This document shows positions 16,434 through 23,993 of a DNA stretch of 45,687 nt, in pieces; position 1 is the first letter of the stretch; each line of letters begins with the position of its first letter. The notes under the pieces were generated by a model. It was not told the DNA's origin. It did no database searches and saw only the letters and a list, made by a program, of their open reading frames with translations. A program made the position numbers and the translations under genes. The DNA is taken from NCBI GenBank assembly GCA_964490075.1, contig CAZBBK010000044.1:1-45687 (forward strand). The letters run 5' to 3'. The stretch comes from an uncultured Gemmatimonadota bacterium. Lineage in GTDB: Bacteria; GCA-2686955.

Positions 16434-17330
16434 CTACCCGCCCCGGAGCCGCCGCCAGCTCGCTTGGATCTGTCGGCGAACCCCCTCCAGCGGCACCGGC
16501 GCCTTGCGGAAGCGCCCCTGCAGCGCGAAGTAGCGTTGGAGCGCCTCGGCCGAGAGCTCCGGCTCGACGTTGATCCGCGGCCGGTCGCCTGCGAACGACT
16601 CGTAGACCGGGTAGAGACCGGAGCGCACCGCCAGGCGAATCAGCTCGATTCCGTCGGCCGGCTCGGAGCGCCAGCCGGTGGGGCAGGGTGCCAGCAGGTG
16701 GACGAAACGAAAGCCCTGCATCGCCAGTGCCTGACGCAGCTTGCGATGCGCGTCGTCGGGGTGCGCCAGCGACACCGTTGCCGCGTAGGGGATGCGATGC
16801 GCCATCATGATCGCCATCATGTCCTTCTTGGCGACATCTTTGCCATGCGGCGTGGTGGTGGTGGCGGCTCCGAAGGGTGTGGCGGAGGAGCGCTGGCCGC
16901 CGGTGTTGCCGTAGATCTCGTTGTCGTAGCAGAAGTAGAGCAGATCTTCGTTGCGCTCGGCGGCCGCCGAAACTGTCGCCATGCCGATGTCGTAGGTGCC
17001 GCCGTCGCCGGCGATGCAGATCACGCGGGTCTTCTCGCGATTGAGTCGGGCGGCATGGGCCAGACCGGTACCGACCGCGGCGGTGGCGGCAAAGGTGGAA
17101 CCGACCACCGGGGCGCCGTAGCCGGAAAAGGGGAAGGGACCAGGGGCGACGAAGGCGCAGCAGGCCGGGATCGCCATCTGCACCGGAGTGTCGGCGATGG
17201 CGCGGCTCAGGAACTGCAGGGCGACCGACATACCGCAGCCGCCGCAATTGGTGTTGCCGGCGCGCAGCAGAGGCTCGGCGCGGTCGGATGCGGTCTGGGC
17301 CATGCCGTCCAGGAGCGGTTCGGGCATCAT
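16434..17330 (-). CDS. porB: 2-oxoacid:acceptor oxidoreductase beta (TPP-binding) subunit
   Basis: CGGCG, TPP motif GDGGTYDIG...YDNEIYGNTGGQRS, APCPTGW; ATGA overlap with the alpha gene. Confidence 0.9.
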   Translation of the reverse strand: MMPEPLLDGMAQTASDRAEPLLRAGNTNCGGCGMSVALQFLSRAIADTPVQMAIPACCAFVAPGPFPFSGYGAPVVGSTFAATAAVGTGLAHAARLNREKTRVICIAGDGGTYDIGMATVSAAAERNEDLLYFCYDNEIYGNTGGQRSSATPFGAATTTTPHGKDVAKKDMMAIMMAHRIPYAATVSLAHPDDAHRKLRQALAMQGFRFVHLLAPCPTGWRSEPADGIELIRLAVRSGLYPVYESFAGDRPRINVEPELSAEALQRYFALQGRFRKAPVPLEGVRRQIQASWRRLRGG

Positions 17331-18493
17331 CCCACCTCCACGATCTCGCAGCCGCCGGACTGGTCGCGGGAGCGAATGTCGTCGATCAGGGACTCGATGT
17401 GCTCGGGGCGAATGTCGCCACCGCCGAGGCCCAGGATGTAGCCCTGCACGACACTTCTGTGCGGCGCCAGTGCGCGCAGCTCGCCCCAGAGCACGCCGCC
17501 GAAGCCGAGGCTGATGTCGCGATCGAGCAGCGCGACCCGCGCGCAGCCGGCCAGCGCGGCGCGGATCGCTTCCTCCGGCAGCGGGCGAAACATGCGCAGA
17601 CGCAGCGCCCCCGCCCGCACGCCGCGCTCGCGCGCCCGGTCGACGGCCTGGCGCACCGTGGCGGCGGTGGTGCCGATCGAGACCAGGGCGATCTCGGCGT
17701 CGTCCATGGAATAGGGCACGATCGGGTCGGCGGGGCGGCGGCCGATCGTCTCGGCCATCCGGTCCTGGATCTCCGGGTAGATCTCCAGCACCCGGGCCAT
17801 CGCCTCGGCGTGCTGCTTGCGATGCACCTCGGTCTCGTGCGGGGCGTCGAGGCCGCCGACGGTGCGCGGCCGGTCGGCGATGCGGTGCGGCAGGTCGAGG
17901 GGCGGCAGGAAGGCGTCGACTTGTGCTTGCTCGGGCAGCTCGATCTCCATCACCGTGTGGGAGAGCACGAAGGCATCCTGGCAGACCATCGCCGGCAGCA
18001 GCACCCGCGGGTCTTCGGCGAGGCGGAAAGCAAGCAGCAGAGTATCGGCCACCTCCTGGTTGTCTTCGCAGTAGAGCTGGATCCAGCCGGCGTCGCGCAA
18101 GAGCAGCGAGTCGCCGTGGTCGGCCCAGATGTTCCAGGGCGGGCCGATGGTGCGGTTGACCACCATCATCACGATCGGCAACCGCGAGTAGGCGGCGGCG
18201 ATGCAGTTCTCGACCATGTAGGCGAGCCCGTTCGACGAGGTGGCGGTGAAGCTGCGCGCTCCGGCCGACGCCAGGCCGATGCACACCCCCATGGCGCTGT
18301 GCTCGCTCTCGACGTGCACCAGGTGGCCCTTTTCGATCTGCTGCGCGCAGAGCACCTCGATCGACTCGCTCTGCGGGGTGATCGGATAGACACCACCGCC
18401 GAAGCCGCGTCCCGTGCGATTGGCGCGACCGGCCAGCGCCACCGCCAGCGCGGCGCCGTGGTTGGCTGTAACCAGCATTCGTCGCTCACTCAC
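17327..18493 (-). CDS. porA: 2-oxoacid:acceptor oxidoreductase alpha subunit
   Basis: YPITPQS, VESEHSAM, TATSSNGL, D.F.LSHT, LR.FRPLP, LGLGG.DI; GTG start overlaps the upstream stop (alternative ATG 18478). Confidence 0.9.
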   Translation of the reverse strand: MSERRMLVTANHGAALAVALAGRANRTGRGFGGGVYPITPQSESIEVLCAQQIEKGHLVHVESEHSAMGVCIGLASAGARSFTATSSNGLAYMVENCIAAAYSRLPIVMMVVNRTIGPPWNIWADHGDSLLLRDAGWIQLYCEDNQEVADTLLLAFRLAEDPRVLLPAMVCQDAFVLSHTVMEIELPEQAQVDAFLPPLDLPHRIADRPRTVGGLDAPHETEVHRKQHAEAMARVLEIYPEIQDRMAETIGRRPADPIVPYSMDDAEIALVSIGTTAATVRQAVDRARERGVRAGALRLRMFRPLPEEAIRAALAGCARVALLDRDISLGFGGVLWGELRALAPHRSVVQGYILGLGGGDIRPEHIESLIDDIRSRDQSGGCEIVEVG

Positions 18494-20691
18494 TGAAGCG
18501 TCATCTCCATGCAGCCGCGCGGGCATTCGACGACACAGATGCCGCAGCCTTTGCAGTAGTCGCCGTCGATGGTGTAGCCGGTCTCGTTGCGCTGAATCAC
18601 GCCGTCGGGACAGAACACCAAGCAGGTGTCGCAGAGGGTGCAGCGGCCGCACGAAAGGCAACGTTGCGCCTCGTCGGGCCCCTCGAGACCGGCGTTGACC
18701 TCGTCGAGGTGGCGGATGCGGGCGCGCGGGTCGAGGTGCTGCTCGGCGGCCGGCGCCGCGGGCGGGAAGTGGTCGAAGCGCAGCGTCTCCGGGGGGACGG
18801 TCGGAGCGTCGGGGAGCGGGATCGAGAGCGCGTCGGGAACGCCGATCGCGGCCAGGGCGCGGGCCGCGGCGCGCCGGCCGTCGCCGATGGCGTGGGTGAC
18901 GGTGCCCTCGTAGGTGGCCAGGTCGCCGGCGAGGAACACGCTTCCGGGCTCGCCCTGGACGACGACTCGGCCCTCGACCGGAGTCCACCCCTCGGGCAGC
19001 AACACCAGGTCGGCCGACTGCCCCAGCGCCAGCAGCACCGTGTCGCAGGCCAGCTCTTCGCTCCGCTCGGTGACCACCGGGCGGCGCCGGCCGCTCTCGT
19101 CCGGCTCGCCCATCTCCACCTCGGCCAGCTCGATCGCCGCGACCCGCTCCCGGCCGCGGAAGGCCAGGGGCTGGCGCTGGAAGAGCAGCACCACCCCCTC
19201 TTCGACCGCCTCGTCGATCTCGGCGGCGATCGCCGGCATCTCGGCGCGGGTGCGGCGGTAGGCGATGGTGACTCGCTCGGCGCCGGCGCGCAGGGCGCTG
19301 CGGGCGCAGTCGAAGGCGGTGTTGCCGCCGCCCAGCACCACCACGTGGCCCTCGAGAGCGGCCCCGGCGCCGCGGTTCTGGCGGTGCAGAAAGCGGATGC
19401 CCTGCTCGACGCCCTCCAGGTCGGAGCCGGGGCAATCGAGGCCGCGCAGGCGCTGCAGGCCGGTCGCCAGGATCAGCGCGTCGTGCTCGCCGGCCAGCTC
19501 GGCGAGACGGACCGCGTCGACCGCTTCGCCGCAGCGGGCCTCCACCCCGAGGCCGAGCAGCGTCTCGATCTCGCGCTCCAGCACGGCACGCGGCAGGCGG
19601 TATTCCGGGATGCCGGTGCGCAGCACGCCGCCCAGGCCGGGCTCCAGCTCGAAGATAATGGCCCGGTGGCCGGCGCGGGCCAGGGCGTGGGCCGCCGCCA
19701 GACCGGCCGGTCCGCCGCCGACGATGGCGATCCGACGCGGGTCCGGGGCCGGCTCGATCGCCTCCGGAGCGGCGGGTGTATGGTCGGCGATCCAGCGCTC
19801 CAGGGCCCGGATCTGCACGGCGCCGTCGTGGTGGATGCGGTTGCAGGCGGTGGCGCAGGGGGCCGGACAGACCCGCCCGCAAACCGCGGGCAGCGCCGTG
19901 GTGCGCGCCAGGATCTCGGCGGCCGCCGCTTCGCCTTCGGTCGCCAGGGCACGCACGAAGCCGATCACGTCGTTGCCGGCCGGGCAGGCGCCGGTGCAGG
20001 GAGCCGCCGGAGACCGATAGCGGGGTGTCTGGGAGCGCCACAGGCCGGTGCGCAGCCCGGTGGGCGGGCCGACCACGTGCTCGGTGAGCGGCAGCACGGT
20101 CTTCCTCGGAGCCGGGCTCGATGCCGCATGGGACACAGCGATCCGCCGAGGTCTGTCCCCCATCCACACCGCTTCGAAAGCCTCGCGGGCTGCATCCAGG
20201 TTGCTGAGCAGCCCGAGGGCCTCGAACGCCCGCTGGAGCGCGTCGAAGGGCAGGTCGTGGACGCGAGCGAAGGCGCCGGCGAGCGTGGTGTTGACGATGA
20301 CCACCGAGCGGGTGCCGATGCGATGACGGCGGGCGATGGCGGTGGCGTCGACGGTGGCGGGGCGGAAGGCGGGGCAGCGGGCGGCGAGCTCGGCGGCGGA
20401 AGTGGGGGTGTTGACCAGCAAGCTGCCGCCGGGGGCGAGTCCCTCGAGGGCGGCGTCGCCGAGCAGCGAGGGGTCGAAGACCAGCAGATGATCGGGGGCG
20501 TAGACCTTGTTGCGGTTCTCGATCGGTGCGTCTGCGACCCGCAGGTAGGCGCGCACCGGGGCGCCGGAGCGTTCGCCGGCGTAGTCGCCGAAAGCCTGGA
20601 CGCTCTTGCCGAGGTGGGTGTAGATCGACGCCAGGACCTTGGCCCCGGTGACCGCGCCCTGTCCCCCGCGACCGTGCAAACGAACTTCCAT
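18490..20691 (-). CDS. fusion of 2-oxoacid oxidoreductase gamma subunit, GltD/DsrL-like FAD/NAD(P) oxidoreductase and delta-type 2[4Fe-4S] ferredoxin
   Basis: N-terminal PorC motif HGRGGQGAVT..Y.GERSGAPV; PCTGACP and CGRVCPAPC..ACNR clusters; GGGPAG; GGGNTA.D + YRRT; C-terminal CLSCGRC..CDTC...CP and CKGCGIC...CP. Confidence 0.9.
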   Translation of the reverse strand: MEVRLHGRGGQGAVTGAKVLASIYTHLGKSVQAFGDYAGERSGAPVRAYLRVADAPIENRNKVYAPDHLLVFDPSLLGDAALEGLAPGGSLLVNTPTSAAELAARCPAFRPATVDATAIARRHRIGTRSVVIVNTTLAGAFARVHDLPFDALQRAFEALGLLSNLDAAREAFEAVWMGDRPRRIAVSHAASSPAPRKTVLPLTEHVVGPPTGLRTGLWRSQTPRYRSPAAPCTGACPAGNDVIGFVRALATEGEAAAAEILARTTALPAVCGRVCPAPCATACNRIHHDGAVQIRALERWIADHTPAAPEAIEPAPDPRRIAIVGGGPAGLAAAHALARAGHRAIIFELEPGLGGVLRTGIPEYRLPRAVLEREIETLLGLGVEARCGEAVDAVRLAELAGEHDALILATGLQRLRGLDCPGSDLEGVEQGIRFLHRQNRGAGAALEGHVVVLGGGNTAFDCARSALRAGAERVTIAYRRTRAEMPAIAAEIDEAVEEGVVLLFQRQPLAFRGRERVAAIELAEVEMGEPDESGRRRPVVTERSEELACDTVLLALGQSADLVLLPEGWTPVEGRVVVQGEPGSVFLAGDLATYEGTVTHAIGDGRRAAARALAAIGVPDALSIPLPDAPTVPPETLRFDHFPPAAPAAEQHLDPRARIRHLDEVNAGLEGPDEAQRCLSCGRCTLCDTCLVFCPDGVIQRNETGYTIDGDYCKGCGICVVECPRGCMEMTLQ

Positions 20692-20808: not shown

Positions 20809-20987
20809 ACCACAATCCGCCACCTAATCCCGTAGCGAGACGGCGTAGGTGGTTGTGATGGCTGCACTTGGACCGGGTTCTGGGGCGAGGAATGGTGGTT
20901 CTATTTCGCAGCCCCAGGTTCCGGCCCAAGTGCAGCCAGCGCAATCACATACGTCGTCGTAGTGGGGATTGGGTGGCGGATTGTGGT
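20809..20987. repeat. ~180-bp long palindromic element
   Basis: ACCACAATCCGCCACCTAATCCC pairs with GGGATTGGGTGGCGGATTGTGGT; inner arms GACGGCGTA/TACGTCGTC, GTGGTTGTG/CGCAATCAC, TGGCTGCACTTGG/CCAAGTGCAGCCA; core GAGGAATGG..CTATTTCGCAG. Within-stem mismatches are G-U on the + strand. Confidence 0.85.
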
Positions 20988-21071
20988 CAAGCGTCGCGGG
21001 GTGGGCGGTCTCGAATCCGGACCTGATGGACTCTGAAGGGAGAGATGGACCTCGCGGCGCGCCGCCACGAA

Positions 21072-21193
21072 TCGGGTGATCGACCGAATCGCGGCCAGCA
21101 TCGGCATATTTGCCGATGCGGGGATGTTGTTTCCCAGTGGGCGTGGATTCGGTAATATCGCCGAATCATGAACAACTTCGGTGATCTCCCCGA
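21072..21193. promoter_or_regulatory. array of four TCGG-N8-CCGA palindromic operators over the satD promoter and start
   Basis: Copies at 21072-21087, 21101-21116, 21149-21164 and 21178-21193; pairs 1-2 and 3-4 are each 29 bp apart; copy 3 contains a -10-like TAATAT. Confidence 0.75.
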
Positions 21194-21839
21194 TGCACCC
21201 GTCGCCGCACTGATCGGTGACCTGCTCGGGTCCCGTTCGATCGATCGGCGGACGGAGGCTCAGGACGCGCTGGAGCGGGAGCTCGAGGCCCTCGACCAGC
21301 GGCTCGGTGACGGTCTGGCGGCGCGCTTCGTGCTGACCCTGGGGGACGAGTTCCAGGGGCTCCTGCGGGCGCCGGAGCTGGTGCTGCCCTGCTTGATCCA
21401 CCTGGAGACCCATCTTCCGGCGTTGCCGATCCGCTTCGGGGTGGGCTGGGGCCGCCTGGCAACGCAGCTCAGGGCGCGCGCGATCGGCATGGACGGGCCT
21501 TGTTTCCATCACGCCCGTGCCGCCCTGGAGCGAGCCAAGCGCGAGCAGCGCTGGATCGTGGTGGCCGGTTTTGGCGCCGATCTCGACGCCACGCTGAACG
21601 CTGTGCTGCGCCTGCTGGGCGAGCTGCGGATGCGCTGGACCGATACCCAGGCCGAGACCGTGGCGTTGATGCGCCGGCTGGGGACCCAGAAAGCGGTCGC
21701 CGCGGCCCGGGGGGTGGCACCGTCGACGATCAGCGAGGCGCTGAGCGCGGCACTCTTCGATCCAACCGCGGAGGTTGAGCGGGCGTTGGCCGGCCTGTTG
21801 CGCTCGGCACCGGAAGGGCCGGGGAGCACCGCGCGGTGA
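21168..21839 (+). CDS. satD: SatD family protein (nucleotidyl-cyclase-like domain + C-terminal HTH)
   Basis: ALIGDLLGSR, LTLGDEFQG, RFGVGWG, MDGPCFHHAR.AL, WT..Q.E and HTH 'TQKAVAAARGVAPSTISEAL'. Confidence 0.88.
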   Translation: MNNFGDLPDAPVAALIGDLLGSRSIDRRTEAQDALERELEALDQRLGDGLAARFVLTLGDEFQGLLRAPELVLPCLIHLETHLPALPIRFGVGWGRLATQLRARAIGMDGPCFHHARAALERAKREQRWIVVAGFGADLDATLNAVLRLLGELRMRWTDTQAETVALMRRLGTQKAVAAARGVAPSTISEALSAALFDPTAEVERALAGLLRSAPEGPGSTAR

Positions 21840-22606
21840 CGATCGGCACGCGCGGGGGCCAGATTCTCGTGCTCTTGGTGGTTGGCCACGTGATCGCCGA
21901 CTTCCTGGTTCAGACCGACCGGGTGGCCGGTCGCAAGGGGGATTGCGGCCGGACGCTGGCGCGCCACGGCTTGCTCACGGCGACGACCCAGATCGCGGTG
22001 GCTGCACCGCTCTTGAGCACCGCTCTGGTAGTCGGGCTGGGGTTGGTGGCGTGCGTGCACATGGCGCTCGACTGGGGCAAGGCGCGGCTGGAAGCGCGAT
22101 GCTCGAAGTCCCTGACCCTTTTCTTCGCCGATCAGGCGCTGCACCTGGCGACACTATTGGTGCTTTGGTGGGTGCTGCCTGCGGTCGGTGCGGCGGCCGA
22201 GCCCTGGTGGGCGTCCTCGACCCGGGGCCTCGCACCCTACGTGGCGGCGGCGTTGGTGGTCGGGGGACTGGTGTTCAACGGCAAGGGTGGAACAGCGATC
22301 GTGCGCGCGTTGCTCGACCGATTCGCGAGCCTGGGCACGGCCGGGGAGGATGCCGATCTGGCGGACCGCCTGGCGATGGGACGGATGGTCGGGGTGCTCG
22401 AGCGCGCGTTGCTCTATGCACTGGTGCTTCTCGGGCATTGGGGGGCGTTGGGACTGGTGATGGCGGCGAAGTCGGTGGCCCGTTACCCGGAGATGAACAA
22501 GCCACACTTTGCCGACTACTACCTCGTCGGCACGCTGGCCAGCCTGGTGGTGGCGCTGGCATCGGGGGTGGTGGTGGCGGCGCTGCTCGGACGGCTTGTG
22601 ATCTGA
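21836..22606 (+). CDS. DUF3307 (SatE-like) integral membrane protein
   Basis: GHVIADFLVQ, RH, HMALD, ADQALH metal-ligand-like motifs; G.MVG.LER, AAKSVARY..DYYLVGTLAS tail; GTGA overlap with satD. Confidence 0.85.
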   Translation: MTIGTRGGQILVLLVVGHVIADFLVQTDRVAGRKGDCGRTLARHGLLTATTQIAVAAPLLSTALVVGLGLVACVHMALDWGKARLEARCSKSLTLFFADQALHLATLLVLWWVLPAVGAAAEPWWASSTRGLAPYVAAALVVGGLVFNGKGGTAIVRALLDRFASLGTAGEDADLADRLAMGRMVGVLERALLYALVLLGHWGALGLVMAAKSVARYPEMNKPHFADYYLVGTLASLVVALASGVVVAALLGRLVI

Positions 22607-23169
22607 TGGGGCGGCGAAATACAGGCTTCTACGCTCCGTACCGCCCGAGTGCGTCGCGCGATGGTGTCGCGGACCTGGTGCTGCGAGACGCCGGAATCGA
22701 TGATGCCGCGGCGATTGCTCGGATCCACGCGGAACGCCATGGCGGCTCACCCGCGGATACCGAAGGAGCAGTGGCACGCGAATTGACGCGGATCGGCGCC
22801 GGAGAGATCGAGAAGTACGTCTGCGTCGCTTTGGCTGGCGCTCGGGTGGTCGGCTTCGGGCGTTGCAGTCGACTGGGGGAGGCGCAGCTCGCCGGCTGCC
22901 GCGGGCTGTCTCCGGGTTGCTATCTGGGCGGCGTGGTCGTCGAAATCGCCGTGCGCCGCCGGGGTATCGGCCGCGCCTTGACGCTGCATCGGCTGGACTG
23001 GCTGCGCGCCCGCACGAACGAAGTGTTCTACTTCGCCGATCTGGTGAACCGGCCTTCGATCGACCTGCACGCAGCGCTGGGATTCGAGAAGATCTCGCGC
23101 GATTTCTCGGTGCCGCCGGGGCTCCTGGAGGGCGCCGATATTCTGTCTCGTATGGAGCTGTGCGGCTGA
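22606..23169 (+). CDS. GNAT family N-acetyltransferase
   Basis: VVGFG, V.V...RRRGIGRAL acetyl-CoA loop, N.PSIDLH..LGF; TGATG overlap with DUF3307. Confidence 0.85.
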   Translation: MGRRNTGFYAPYRPSASRDGVADLVLRDAGIDDAAAIARIHAERHGGSPADTEGAVARELTRIGAGEIEKYVCVALAGARVVGFGRCSRLGEAQLAGCRGLSPGCYLGGVVVEIAVRRRGIGRALTLHRLDWLRARTNEVFYFADLVNRPSIDLHAALGFEKISRDFSVPPGLLEGADILSRMELCG

Positions 23170-23171
23170 GT

Positions 23172-23357
23172 TGAGGGTCCGCGCAAGAACAAGTAGGTAT
23201 TTTGGCGCCCAGATGTGGTGCAGATCTGGTCGATCGGTGAGTTCCGAAACCGGAGGAGTAGCAGCGCTACTTCGAGGATTTCGGGGCTCAGCGATCGGCC
23301 GGAGATGTGCCGCAGATGGGATGCCAAAATGCCTACTTGTTCTTGCGCGGACCCTTA
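23172..23357. repeat. ~185-bp long palindromic element (RPE/MITE-like)
   Basis: 24-bp perfect IR AGGGTCCGCGCAAGAACAAGTAGG (23174-23197) / 23332-23355, pairing inward to a core GAGGAGTAGC-AGC-GCTACTTCGAGGA; G-U wobbles on the + strand. Fills the convergent GNAT/vapC spacer. Confidence 0.88.
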
Positions 23358-23358
23358 T

Positions 23359-23754
23359 TCAGCGATTCGCCAGCACATCCAGCTCCGGTACATTGAAGAG
23401 CCTGCGGTCGCCGGTCACCAGCGTCAAGCCGCCGACGATTGCGGTGGCGGCGATGAAGCGGTCCGCCGGATCGGGGTGATTCAGCGACACCTTGCGGCTC
23501 GCGATCGCGATCTCCGTGGTGAGTGGGGCTTCACGAAGAGGGACTCGGCGCAAGGCCGTTGCGATCCAATCCGGCGGGGAAGGACGCAGCACCACCCGCC
23601 CCTTTTCGCCCAGCAAGTGCGCCTCCCAGACACTGATCGGAGAGAGCATGAGCTCGTGGTCCGGATCGGTCAACGCGCTCGCCACCGGCGGCCGGAGTCG
23701 GTCCGCATCCAACAGGCTCCACAACCAGATATGGGTATCGAGCAGCAGCTTCAA
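23359..23754 (-). CDS. vapC: type II toxin, VapC/PIN family
   Basis: KLLLDTHIWLW, SPISVWE, H.DPADRFIAATA, LVTGD; TTG start overlaps the antitoxin stop. Confidence 0.93.
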   Translation of the reverse strand: MKLLLDTHIWLWSLLDADRLRPPVASALTDPDHELMLSPISVWEAHLLGEKGRVVLRPSPPDWIATALRRVPLREAPLTTEIAIASRKVSLNHPDPADRFIAATAIVGGLTLVTGDRRLFNVPELDVLANR

Positions 23755-23993
23755 GGCGCCATCGCCTCCCAATCCTCCGCGGCGGCGACCGGCTCCACCA
23801 GGTCGCCGATCACCTCGCCGGTCTCCGCCAGGCAACCCAGCCACGAGGGGGGCCGCTCTCCCGGGCCGGGCGGCCGAATCTCCGCGACCGGCACGCCGCG
23901 CCGGGTCACGAGCAGCGGTACACCGGTCTTGCGGACCCGCTCCAGCAATGCCAGGCAGGTGGCCTTGAATTCGGAAATCGCCACGGTCTGCAT
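23751..23993 (-). CDS. type II antitoxin, Phd/YefM family
   Basis: MQTVAISEFKATCLALLERV..LLVTRRGVPVAEI; GGAGG RBS. Confidence 0.92.
   Translation of the reverse strand: MQTVAISEFKATCLALLERVRKTGVPLLVTRRGVPVAEIRPPGPGERPPSWLGCLAETGEVIGDLVEPVAAAEDWEAMAP

Follow-up and report, generated by a model that had tools for sequence, protein, structure and literature searches.

A satD gene and an unnamed membrane core as a candidate autoregulated toxin-antitoxin module in an uncultured Gemmatimonadota bacterium

What does satD do, together with the membrane protein gene that overlaps it, in the genome of an uncultured Gemmatimonadota bacterium? The gene lies in a stretch of 45,687 nucleotides (contig CAZBBK010000044.1 of assembly GCA_964490075.1), analysed here at its full length as the window, and a preliminary description made from the sequence had read its operon as a nucleotide-signalling, anti-phage or toxin-antitoxin system with a membrane effector. 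SatD and SatE of the streptococcal sat locus belong to the same two families (PF16264; PF11750) and have the same gene order. Kremer reportedly chose the name satD in 2001 because in S. mutans the gene is linked to ffh. Elsewhere, in the passages available of two reports, the gene carries an acid-tolerance label only (PMC5786311, PMC10326533). The satD pair is widespread in bacteria and archaea, essentially unstudied, and annotated through a misleading name.

The satD operon and its membrane partner

The satD gene (21168-21839, + strand) encodes 223 aa that match Pfam SatD at E 3.6e-24 (86 bits, curated cut-off 29). It is followed on the + strand by the SatE-like membrane partner (21836-22606; 256 aa, 8-9 predicted helices), whose DUF3307 match (E 5.3e-16; 59.2 bits, curated cut-off 23) spans residues 10-116 only, and by an overlapping GNAT acetyltransferase gene (22606-23169, + strand; 187 aa, E 1.7e-9). 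Open reading frame calls and the GTGA and TGATG overlaps at the gene junctions agree with the three translationally coupled genes first described. The SatD family and DUF3307 each occur once in the 5.7-Mb genome. PADLOC matched none of satD, the partner, the GNAT gene or the neighbouring vapBC pair, and NCBIfam matched neither SatD nor the partner, giving sub-threshold acetyltransferase rows only for the GNAT protein. The GNAT gene (GC3 0.76 versus 0.85) had been put forward as a possible modifier; it overlaps the partner gene, yet it is present at this locus alone and absent beside the pair elsewhere, including the three nearest relatives, in each of which the pair sits at a different site. 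We therefore treat it as unrelated cargo.

Coupling between satD and the membrane gene proved as tight as had been proposed. Of the 80 best genome loci, 77 have the partner beside satD: in 76 it follows directly, and in one it is inverted and lies upstream. Two of the three loci without it end at a contig edge. The motifs reported for the multi-helix partner, H18xxxD22, H44, H75xxxD79 and D99Q100xxH103, are all present and conserved within its DUF3307 domain (21863..22186, + strand), which is dispensable family-wide: 52 of the 77 partners have both this His site and the C-terminal core (G..IG.LER / AAKS.AR / YYL.GTL.S; here 22355..22603, + strand), 17 have the core without the His site, five have a partial His site and three are truncated or were missed by the pattern. 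Core-only partners of 116-150 aa occur in both bacteria and archaea.

The same picture emerges from a sample of 301 genomes not picked for the pair, in which PF16264 matched 27 places, a profile of the core 27 and PF11750 38. Each of the 27 cores in this small sample adjoins a satD gene (23 beside a PF16264 match, four beside a divergent satD), while four of 31 satD genes, one of them broken, are without a core, an asymmetry (0/27 versus 4/31) too small for significance. DUF3307 is carried by 12 of the 27 core genes and adjoins satD at 12 of its 38 places; the AxK and EYY-GT motifs of the core are absent from all 26 DUF3307 genes that lie elsewhere. Since DUF3307 is found mostly away from satD and the core always behind it, the His domain is a separable unit, and what is specific to SatD is the core. 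Within the membrane protein, the obligate partner of SatD is thus this C-terminal core, about 115 aa long and without a name, with DUF3307 as an optional addition. The His motifs, missing from 17 of 77 partners and mostly encoded away from satD, find no support as the effector site for which they had been taken.

The core matched no Pfam family, and across Pfam, PADLOC and NCBIfam the only domain recognised in the partner was DUF3307, with no S-2TM-beta, CARF, SAVED, cNMP-binding or patatin domain. Structure searches with the partner model (pLDDT 91.8) gave nothing above noise and no known toxin; no meaningful match bears on the suggested likeness of DUF3307 to Zn membrane hydrolases. The core may be the toxic part, or the part that depends on SatD.

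Operator array and predicted fold of SatD

The operon has its own operator array (21071..21194), as first noticed: four 18-bp palindromes of the form WTCGG-N8-CCGAW at 21071, 21100, 21148 and 21177. Their spacing of 29, 48 and 29 bp makes two pairs, 29 bp within each pair, and the fourth site lies inside the start of satD. Four sites compare with 0.43 expected, and at least four were reached in none of 100 shuffles. Of the 94 such sites that the genome contains, no others are clustered, and lone sites occur as often as palindromes with other spacers; there is therefore no sign of a regulon. Similar pairs recur across phyla. Among 71 loci (80 minus nine near-duplicate or N-containing ones, the window included), a matching pair of 5-N8-5 palindromes 28-30 bp apart lies upstream of satD in 34; a few AT-rich matches may be due to chance. 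Five other lags gave counts of 0, 0, 2, 2 and 1 among the 71 loci, and of 847 other genes 9 had such a pair. Sites of the TCG type accompany all eight proteins with S186 and E190, from bacteria and archaea, and four of 72 others (kin are not independent here, and the tree is a quick one). The operator half-site co-varies with the recognition helix of SatD, and we infer that SatD autorepresses its operon.

SatD comprises a palm domain (residues about 10-135), predicted to adopt a cyclase/GGDEF/GCH III-like fold, and a C-terminal HTH (residues about 155-195). The acidic motifs pointed out earlier along with the HTH, D18/S22 and G59-D60-E61-F62-Q63, were found and are conserved: across 134 SatD sequences D18, G59, D60 and G110 are invariant, and S22, R28, Q32 and R117 are each kept in 133. 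D18 and D60 form a pair like that of class III cyclases, with a metal-binding role assigned by position (strand 1 and the beta2-beta3 turn). Mapped by motif spacing, 128 of 134 sequences have a hydrophobic residue at the class III Lys/Glu position, the Asn position is His or Tyr, and Arg117 falls one residue off the transition-state Arg position. By this mapping the base-specifying residues of class III cyclases appear not to be kept in SatD, which differs from these enzymes (Rv1900c, Ma1120), from GGDEF proteins and from archaeal GTP cyclohydrolase III (MJ0145, 2qv6) also in its fused HTH.

A structure search with the predicted model agrees with the palm or cyclase-type fold that had been proposed, and its palm-fold matches, being tied within about 1 Z unit, do not allow the SatD subfamily to be named. 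They include the CdaR/PucR-type structures 3onq (E 5.8e-4) and 9f80 (E 2.3e-3). CdaR/PucR regulators share with SatD a GGDEF-like domain followed by an HTH; they usually lack the acidic pair, which SatD retains, and SatD is further set apart by its obligate membrane partner. Profiles of class III cyclases, GGDEF and GCH III showed no profile-level similarity to SatD (hhalign 0.2%). Nor is SatD of the mCpol type by sequence, a likeness that had been raised: it scores below the mCpol (PF18182) cut-off, the profile matched two of 75 SatD palm domains (best E 0.01) and, in the 301 genomes, no place where satD lies, and alignment to one mCpol gave an hhalign value of 1.5%. The structural matches listed for SatD do not include OptS, which it may still resemble in structure.

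SatD-TPR-array fusions and tandem SatD-SatD proteins were also seen (L078:10007-12184; P0203, P0216, P0219; P0107, P0110, P0115, P0118, P0134, P0154), and the tandem duplications suggest that SatD is a dimer.

Candidate functions of the pair

Autoregulated type II and enzyme-antitoxin type VII toxin-antitoxin systems (for example MNT-HEPN) have overlapping operons with the antitoxin first, palindromic operators, an essential antitoxin, a dispensable toxin, and orphan antitoxins. The satD pair shares this layout, and SatD is a possible nucleotide-using antitoxin. It differs from these systems in that neither SatD nor its partner is known to belong to a described toxin-antitoxin family, the candidate toxin is a polytopic membrane protein, and the fold of the putative antitoxin is a cyclase-type palm where that of MNT is Pol-beta.

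Published genetics point the same way. According to the sections available of a Tn-seq meta-analysis of S. pyogenes, satD is an accessory gene (carried by 178 of 249 genomes) and Essential in 9/9 data sets, the single essential accessory gene of that species, while the other gene of its operon o_0362, the sole further gene under that label, is accessory and Non-essential in 9/9 (PMC11323703). This operon mate is known by its operon label, adjacent locus tag and COG class OU alone, and is likely a SatE-like protein because the coupling holds family-wide. An essential satD with a dispensable mate, in S. pyogenes and not in the present genome, is the signature of an antitoxin, unnamed by the authors in those sections, where the words 'toxin' and 'antitoxin' are absent. 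The asymmetry fits the toxin-antitoxin option that the preliminary description had listed.

The distribution of satD is that of a mobile gene pair in several respects. The family is large (5,665 clusters at 50% identity). satD is present in 25 of 301 sampled genomes, a patchy distribution, and also occurs in archaea, and a quick tree of SatD mixes phyla and domains. The cassette splits birA from coaX, leuD from leuB, gyrB/parE from gyrA/parC, one dNK from another and a regulator from a kinase (names inferred from Pfam). At nine Eisenbacteria-like loci it is kept at one site, more like a resident gene.

On balance we favour, with fair though far from full confidence, an autoregulated toxin-antitoxin (addiction) module with SatD as antitoxin and autorepressor and the core as toxin. 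Such a module is the simplest account of a satD that is essential but accessory, of a partner that is dispensable, of orphans found for satD and not for the core, and of the palindromes and mobility. Its observed base consists of the coupling, the one-way dependence in the sampled genomes, the co-variation of array and HTH, and the conserved acidic and polar residues in the predicted palm. Bound to site pairs with 29-bp spacing, SatD dimers would repress the operon, and the palm domain, with a metal and a nucleotide probably bound at D18/D60, would hold the membrane core inactive, either through a nucleotide that is made or transferred, to which we give about an even chance, or through direct binding of the core. 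Upon loss of SatD the core would be freed and growth would stop; DUF3307 would be an optional add-on taken from cyclic-nucleotide signalling operons. Since repression alone cannot account for the conserved palm site, SatD likely acts through a nucleotide that it makes or transfers, or through binding of the core that depends on a nucleotide. As a counterpoint, satD could be essential simply because, without its repression, an otherwise harmless membrane protein is overproduced. An addiction module would explain the oddity of S. pyogenes, where a dispensable gene is essential in the strains that have it; it would redefine the functional partner as the unnamed 115-aa membrane core, and a cyclase-fold, DNA-binding antitoxin would join the known nucleotide-based restraints on toxins.

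More tentatively, SatD and the core may constitute an undescribed class of toxin-antitoxin system, with an autorepressor that is also an active palm nucleotide enzyme restraining a membrane toxin of new fold, through its product or a nucleotide that it transfers, by inverse signalling as in Panoptes. We hold this for a possibility of lesser weight. In the available parts of its description, the two-gene Panoptes system OptSE has a palm-fold OptS with two catalytic Asp residues (D6/D57) that holds the membrane protein OptE in check, and is linked to CBASS (PMC12657218). OptS is a 14-kDa mCpol without an HTH, in contrast to SatD, and OptE has 2TM and S-2TM-beta (or CARF/SAVED), none of which is found in the satD partner (PMC12657218). 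If true, inverse signalling by SatD and its core would occur in roughly 8% of the sampled bacterial genomes and in archaea, and might also sense phage nucleotide depletion.

We think it unlikely that the pair is a resident signalling module, with SatD as a transcription factor whose cyclase-like domain is active or senses nucleotides, the membrane protein as its sensor or signal-degrading partner, and essentiality as a side effect of derepression. One argument for it comes from DUF3307 genes without satD. For 10 of these 26 genes, two of the ten being from one genus, a neighbour encodes a class III cyclase (3), an HD_5 protein of HD-GYP type (6) or CRP (1), according to a scan of 21 of the listed neighbours; at satD loci the figure is 0 of 148 neighbours. 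In operons for cyclic-nucleotide signalling DUF3307 may supply a metal site at the membrane, and its tie to such signalling lends indirect support to a nucleotide at SatD. The mostly housekeeping immediate neighbours of satD loci and the SatD-TPR fusions also agree with a signalling role. Against it stand the lack of a regulon, with the operator cluster occurring once in the present genome, and partners of 116-150 aa that are too small for a sensor or His site; nor would one expect an accessory signalling gene to come out as Essential nine times out of nine, as in the S. pyogenes data sets. The neighbours seen beside satD-free DUF3307 genes (L118-L143) include CHASE2- or HAMP-adenylate cyclases, GAF-HD_5 proteins and CRP.

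An anti-phage system of Panoptes or CBASS layout, in which a cyclic nucleotide from SatD gates a membrane-damaging or lipid-hydrolysing effector, appears to us improbable. The palm fold with two Asp residues like those of OptS and the arrangement of synthase plus membrane gene speak for it, and antitoxin-like essentiality is compatible with inverse signalling. The expected enrichment in defence islands did not materialise: PADLOC matched 16 of 146 genes near satD (the first 146 of the 234 nearest) and 16 of 146 far genes (from 199 genes >6.5 kb away), a comparison that, with control genes from the same loci, is compatible with mild island-wide enrichment. The matches in both sets are mostly generic ATPases, helicases and kinases. 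All clear defence genes are in the far set, at five loci (AbiEi, JetA, PDC-S01, Cas2, Csn2, MTase, PDC-M25A); AbiEi, Wadjet, Cas and MTase genes lie within 10 kb of satD there, and vapBC is close to it in the window. satD matches occur in nine plasmid records, and one of the four plasmid loci read holds a defence-like island. A satD copy was looked for in viral contigs and phage records and none was found; the pair itself matched neither PADLOC nor mCpol, the His site is missing in 17 of 77 partners, and the partner has no recognised nucleotide-binding domain. A few satD loci lie near defence genes, and the family overall does not look like island cargo. The plasmid island, on Agrobacterium pAt (L083, NZ_CP011248.1 24248-44814), holds satD with a short core gene among SMEK, RelA/SpoT, DUF4365, MNT-HEPN, HipA and AbiEii.

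Least probable of all is a catalytically dead palm serving dimerisation or ligand sensing as in CdaR/PucR, with SatD repressing a benign membrane protein. For it speak the CdaR/PucR-type fold matches, the hydrophobic Lys/Glu position and the His/Tyr at the Asn position (both placed by motif position); against it stand both acidic residues in 134 of 134 sequences, many near-invariant polar residues, and the compatibility of His in place of Asn with cyclase activity in Rv1900c, as given in the part available of that report (PMC4886424).

Flanking elements and other satD arrangements

The palindromes that were said to bracket the operon are present on both sides, but they are dispersed genome repeats and not the ends of a cassette. 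Upstream, a nested inverted-repeat element of 186 bp (20809-20987) recurs once, with 96% identity, where contig C22 ends; it holds a terminator-like hairpin and is MITE- or RNA-like. Downstream, 33-bp inverted repeats flank a 130-bp repeat (23174-23355) that recurs widely across the genome (as many as 19 overlapping hits); this is likely a miniature mobile element. The toxin-antitoxin pair said to adjoin the operon is indeed there, an ordinary vapBC (Phd/YefM antitoxin and PIN toxin; 23359-23993, - strand) downstream.

Among satD genes without a core, L116 and L117 have a similar 186-aa unannotated gene upstream and an opposite-strand membrane gene downstream, and may represent a satD subfamily whose partner is a different one. 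At L105:303-2399, satD and a core-only partner lie between two similar short ORFs that resemble transposase remnants, with a likeness to IS91, and matched no Pfam family at E 1e-14. Weak mCpol-profile matches elsewhere in the present genome (C38:12909-13250 and C50:15705-15878) fall in long ORFs that probably encode Cas10-type proteins. Further upstream in the window, 16434-20691 (- strand) is a 2-oxoacid:ferredoxin oxidoreductase operon, in which a single protein of 733 aa joins the gamma subunit to a GltD-like flavoprotein and a ferredoxin domain.
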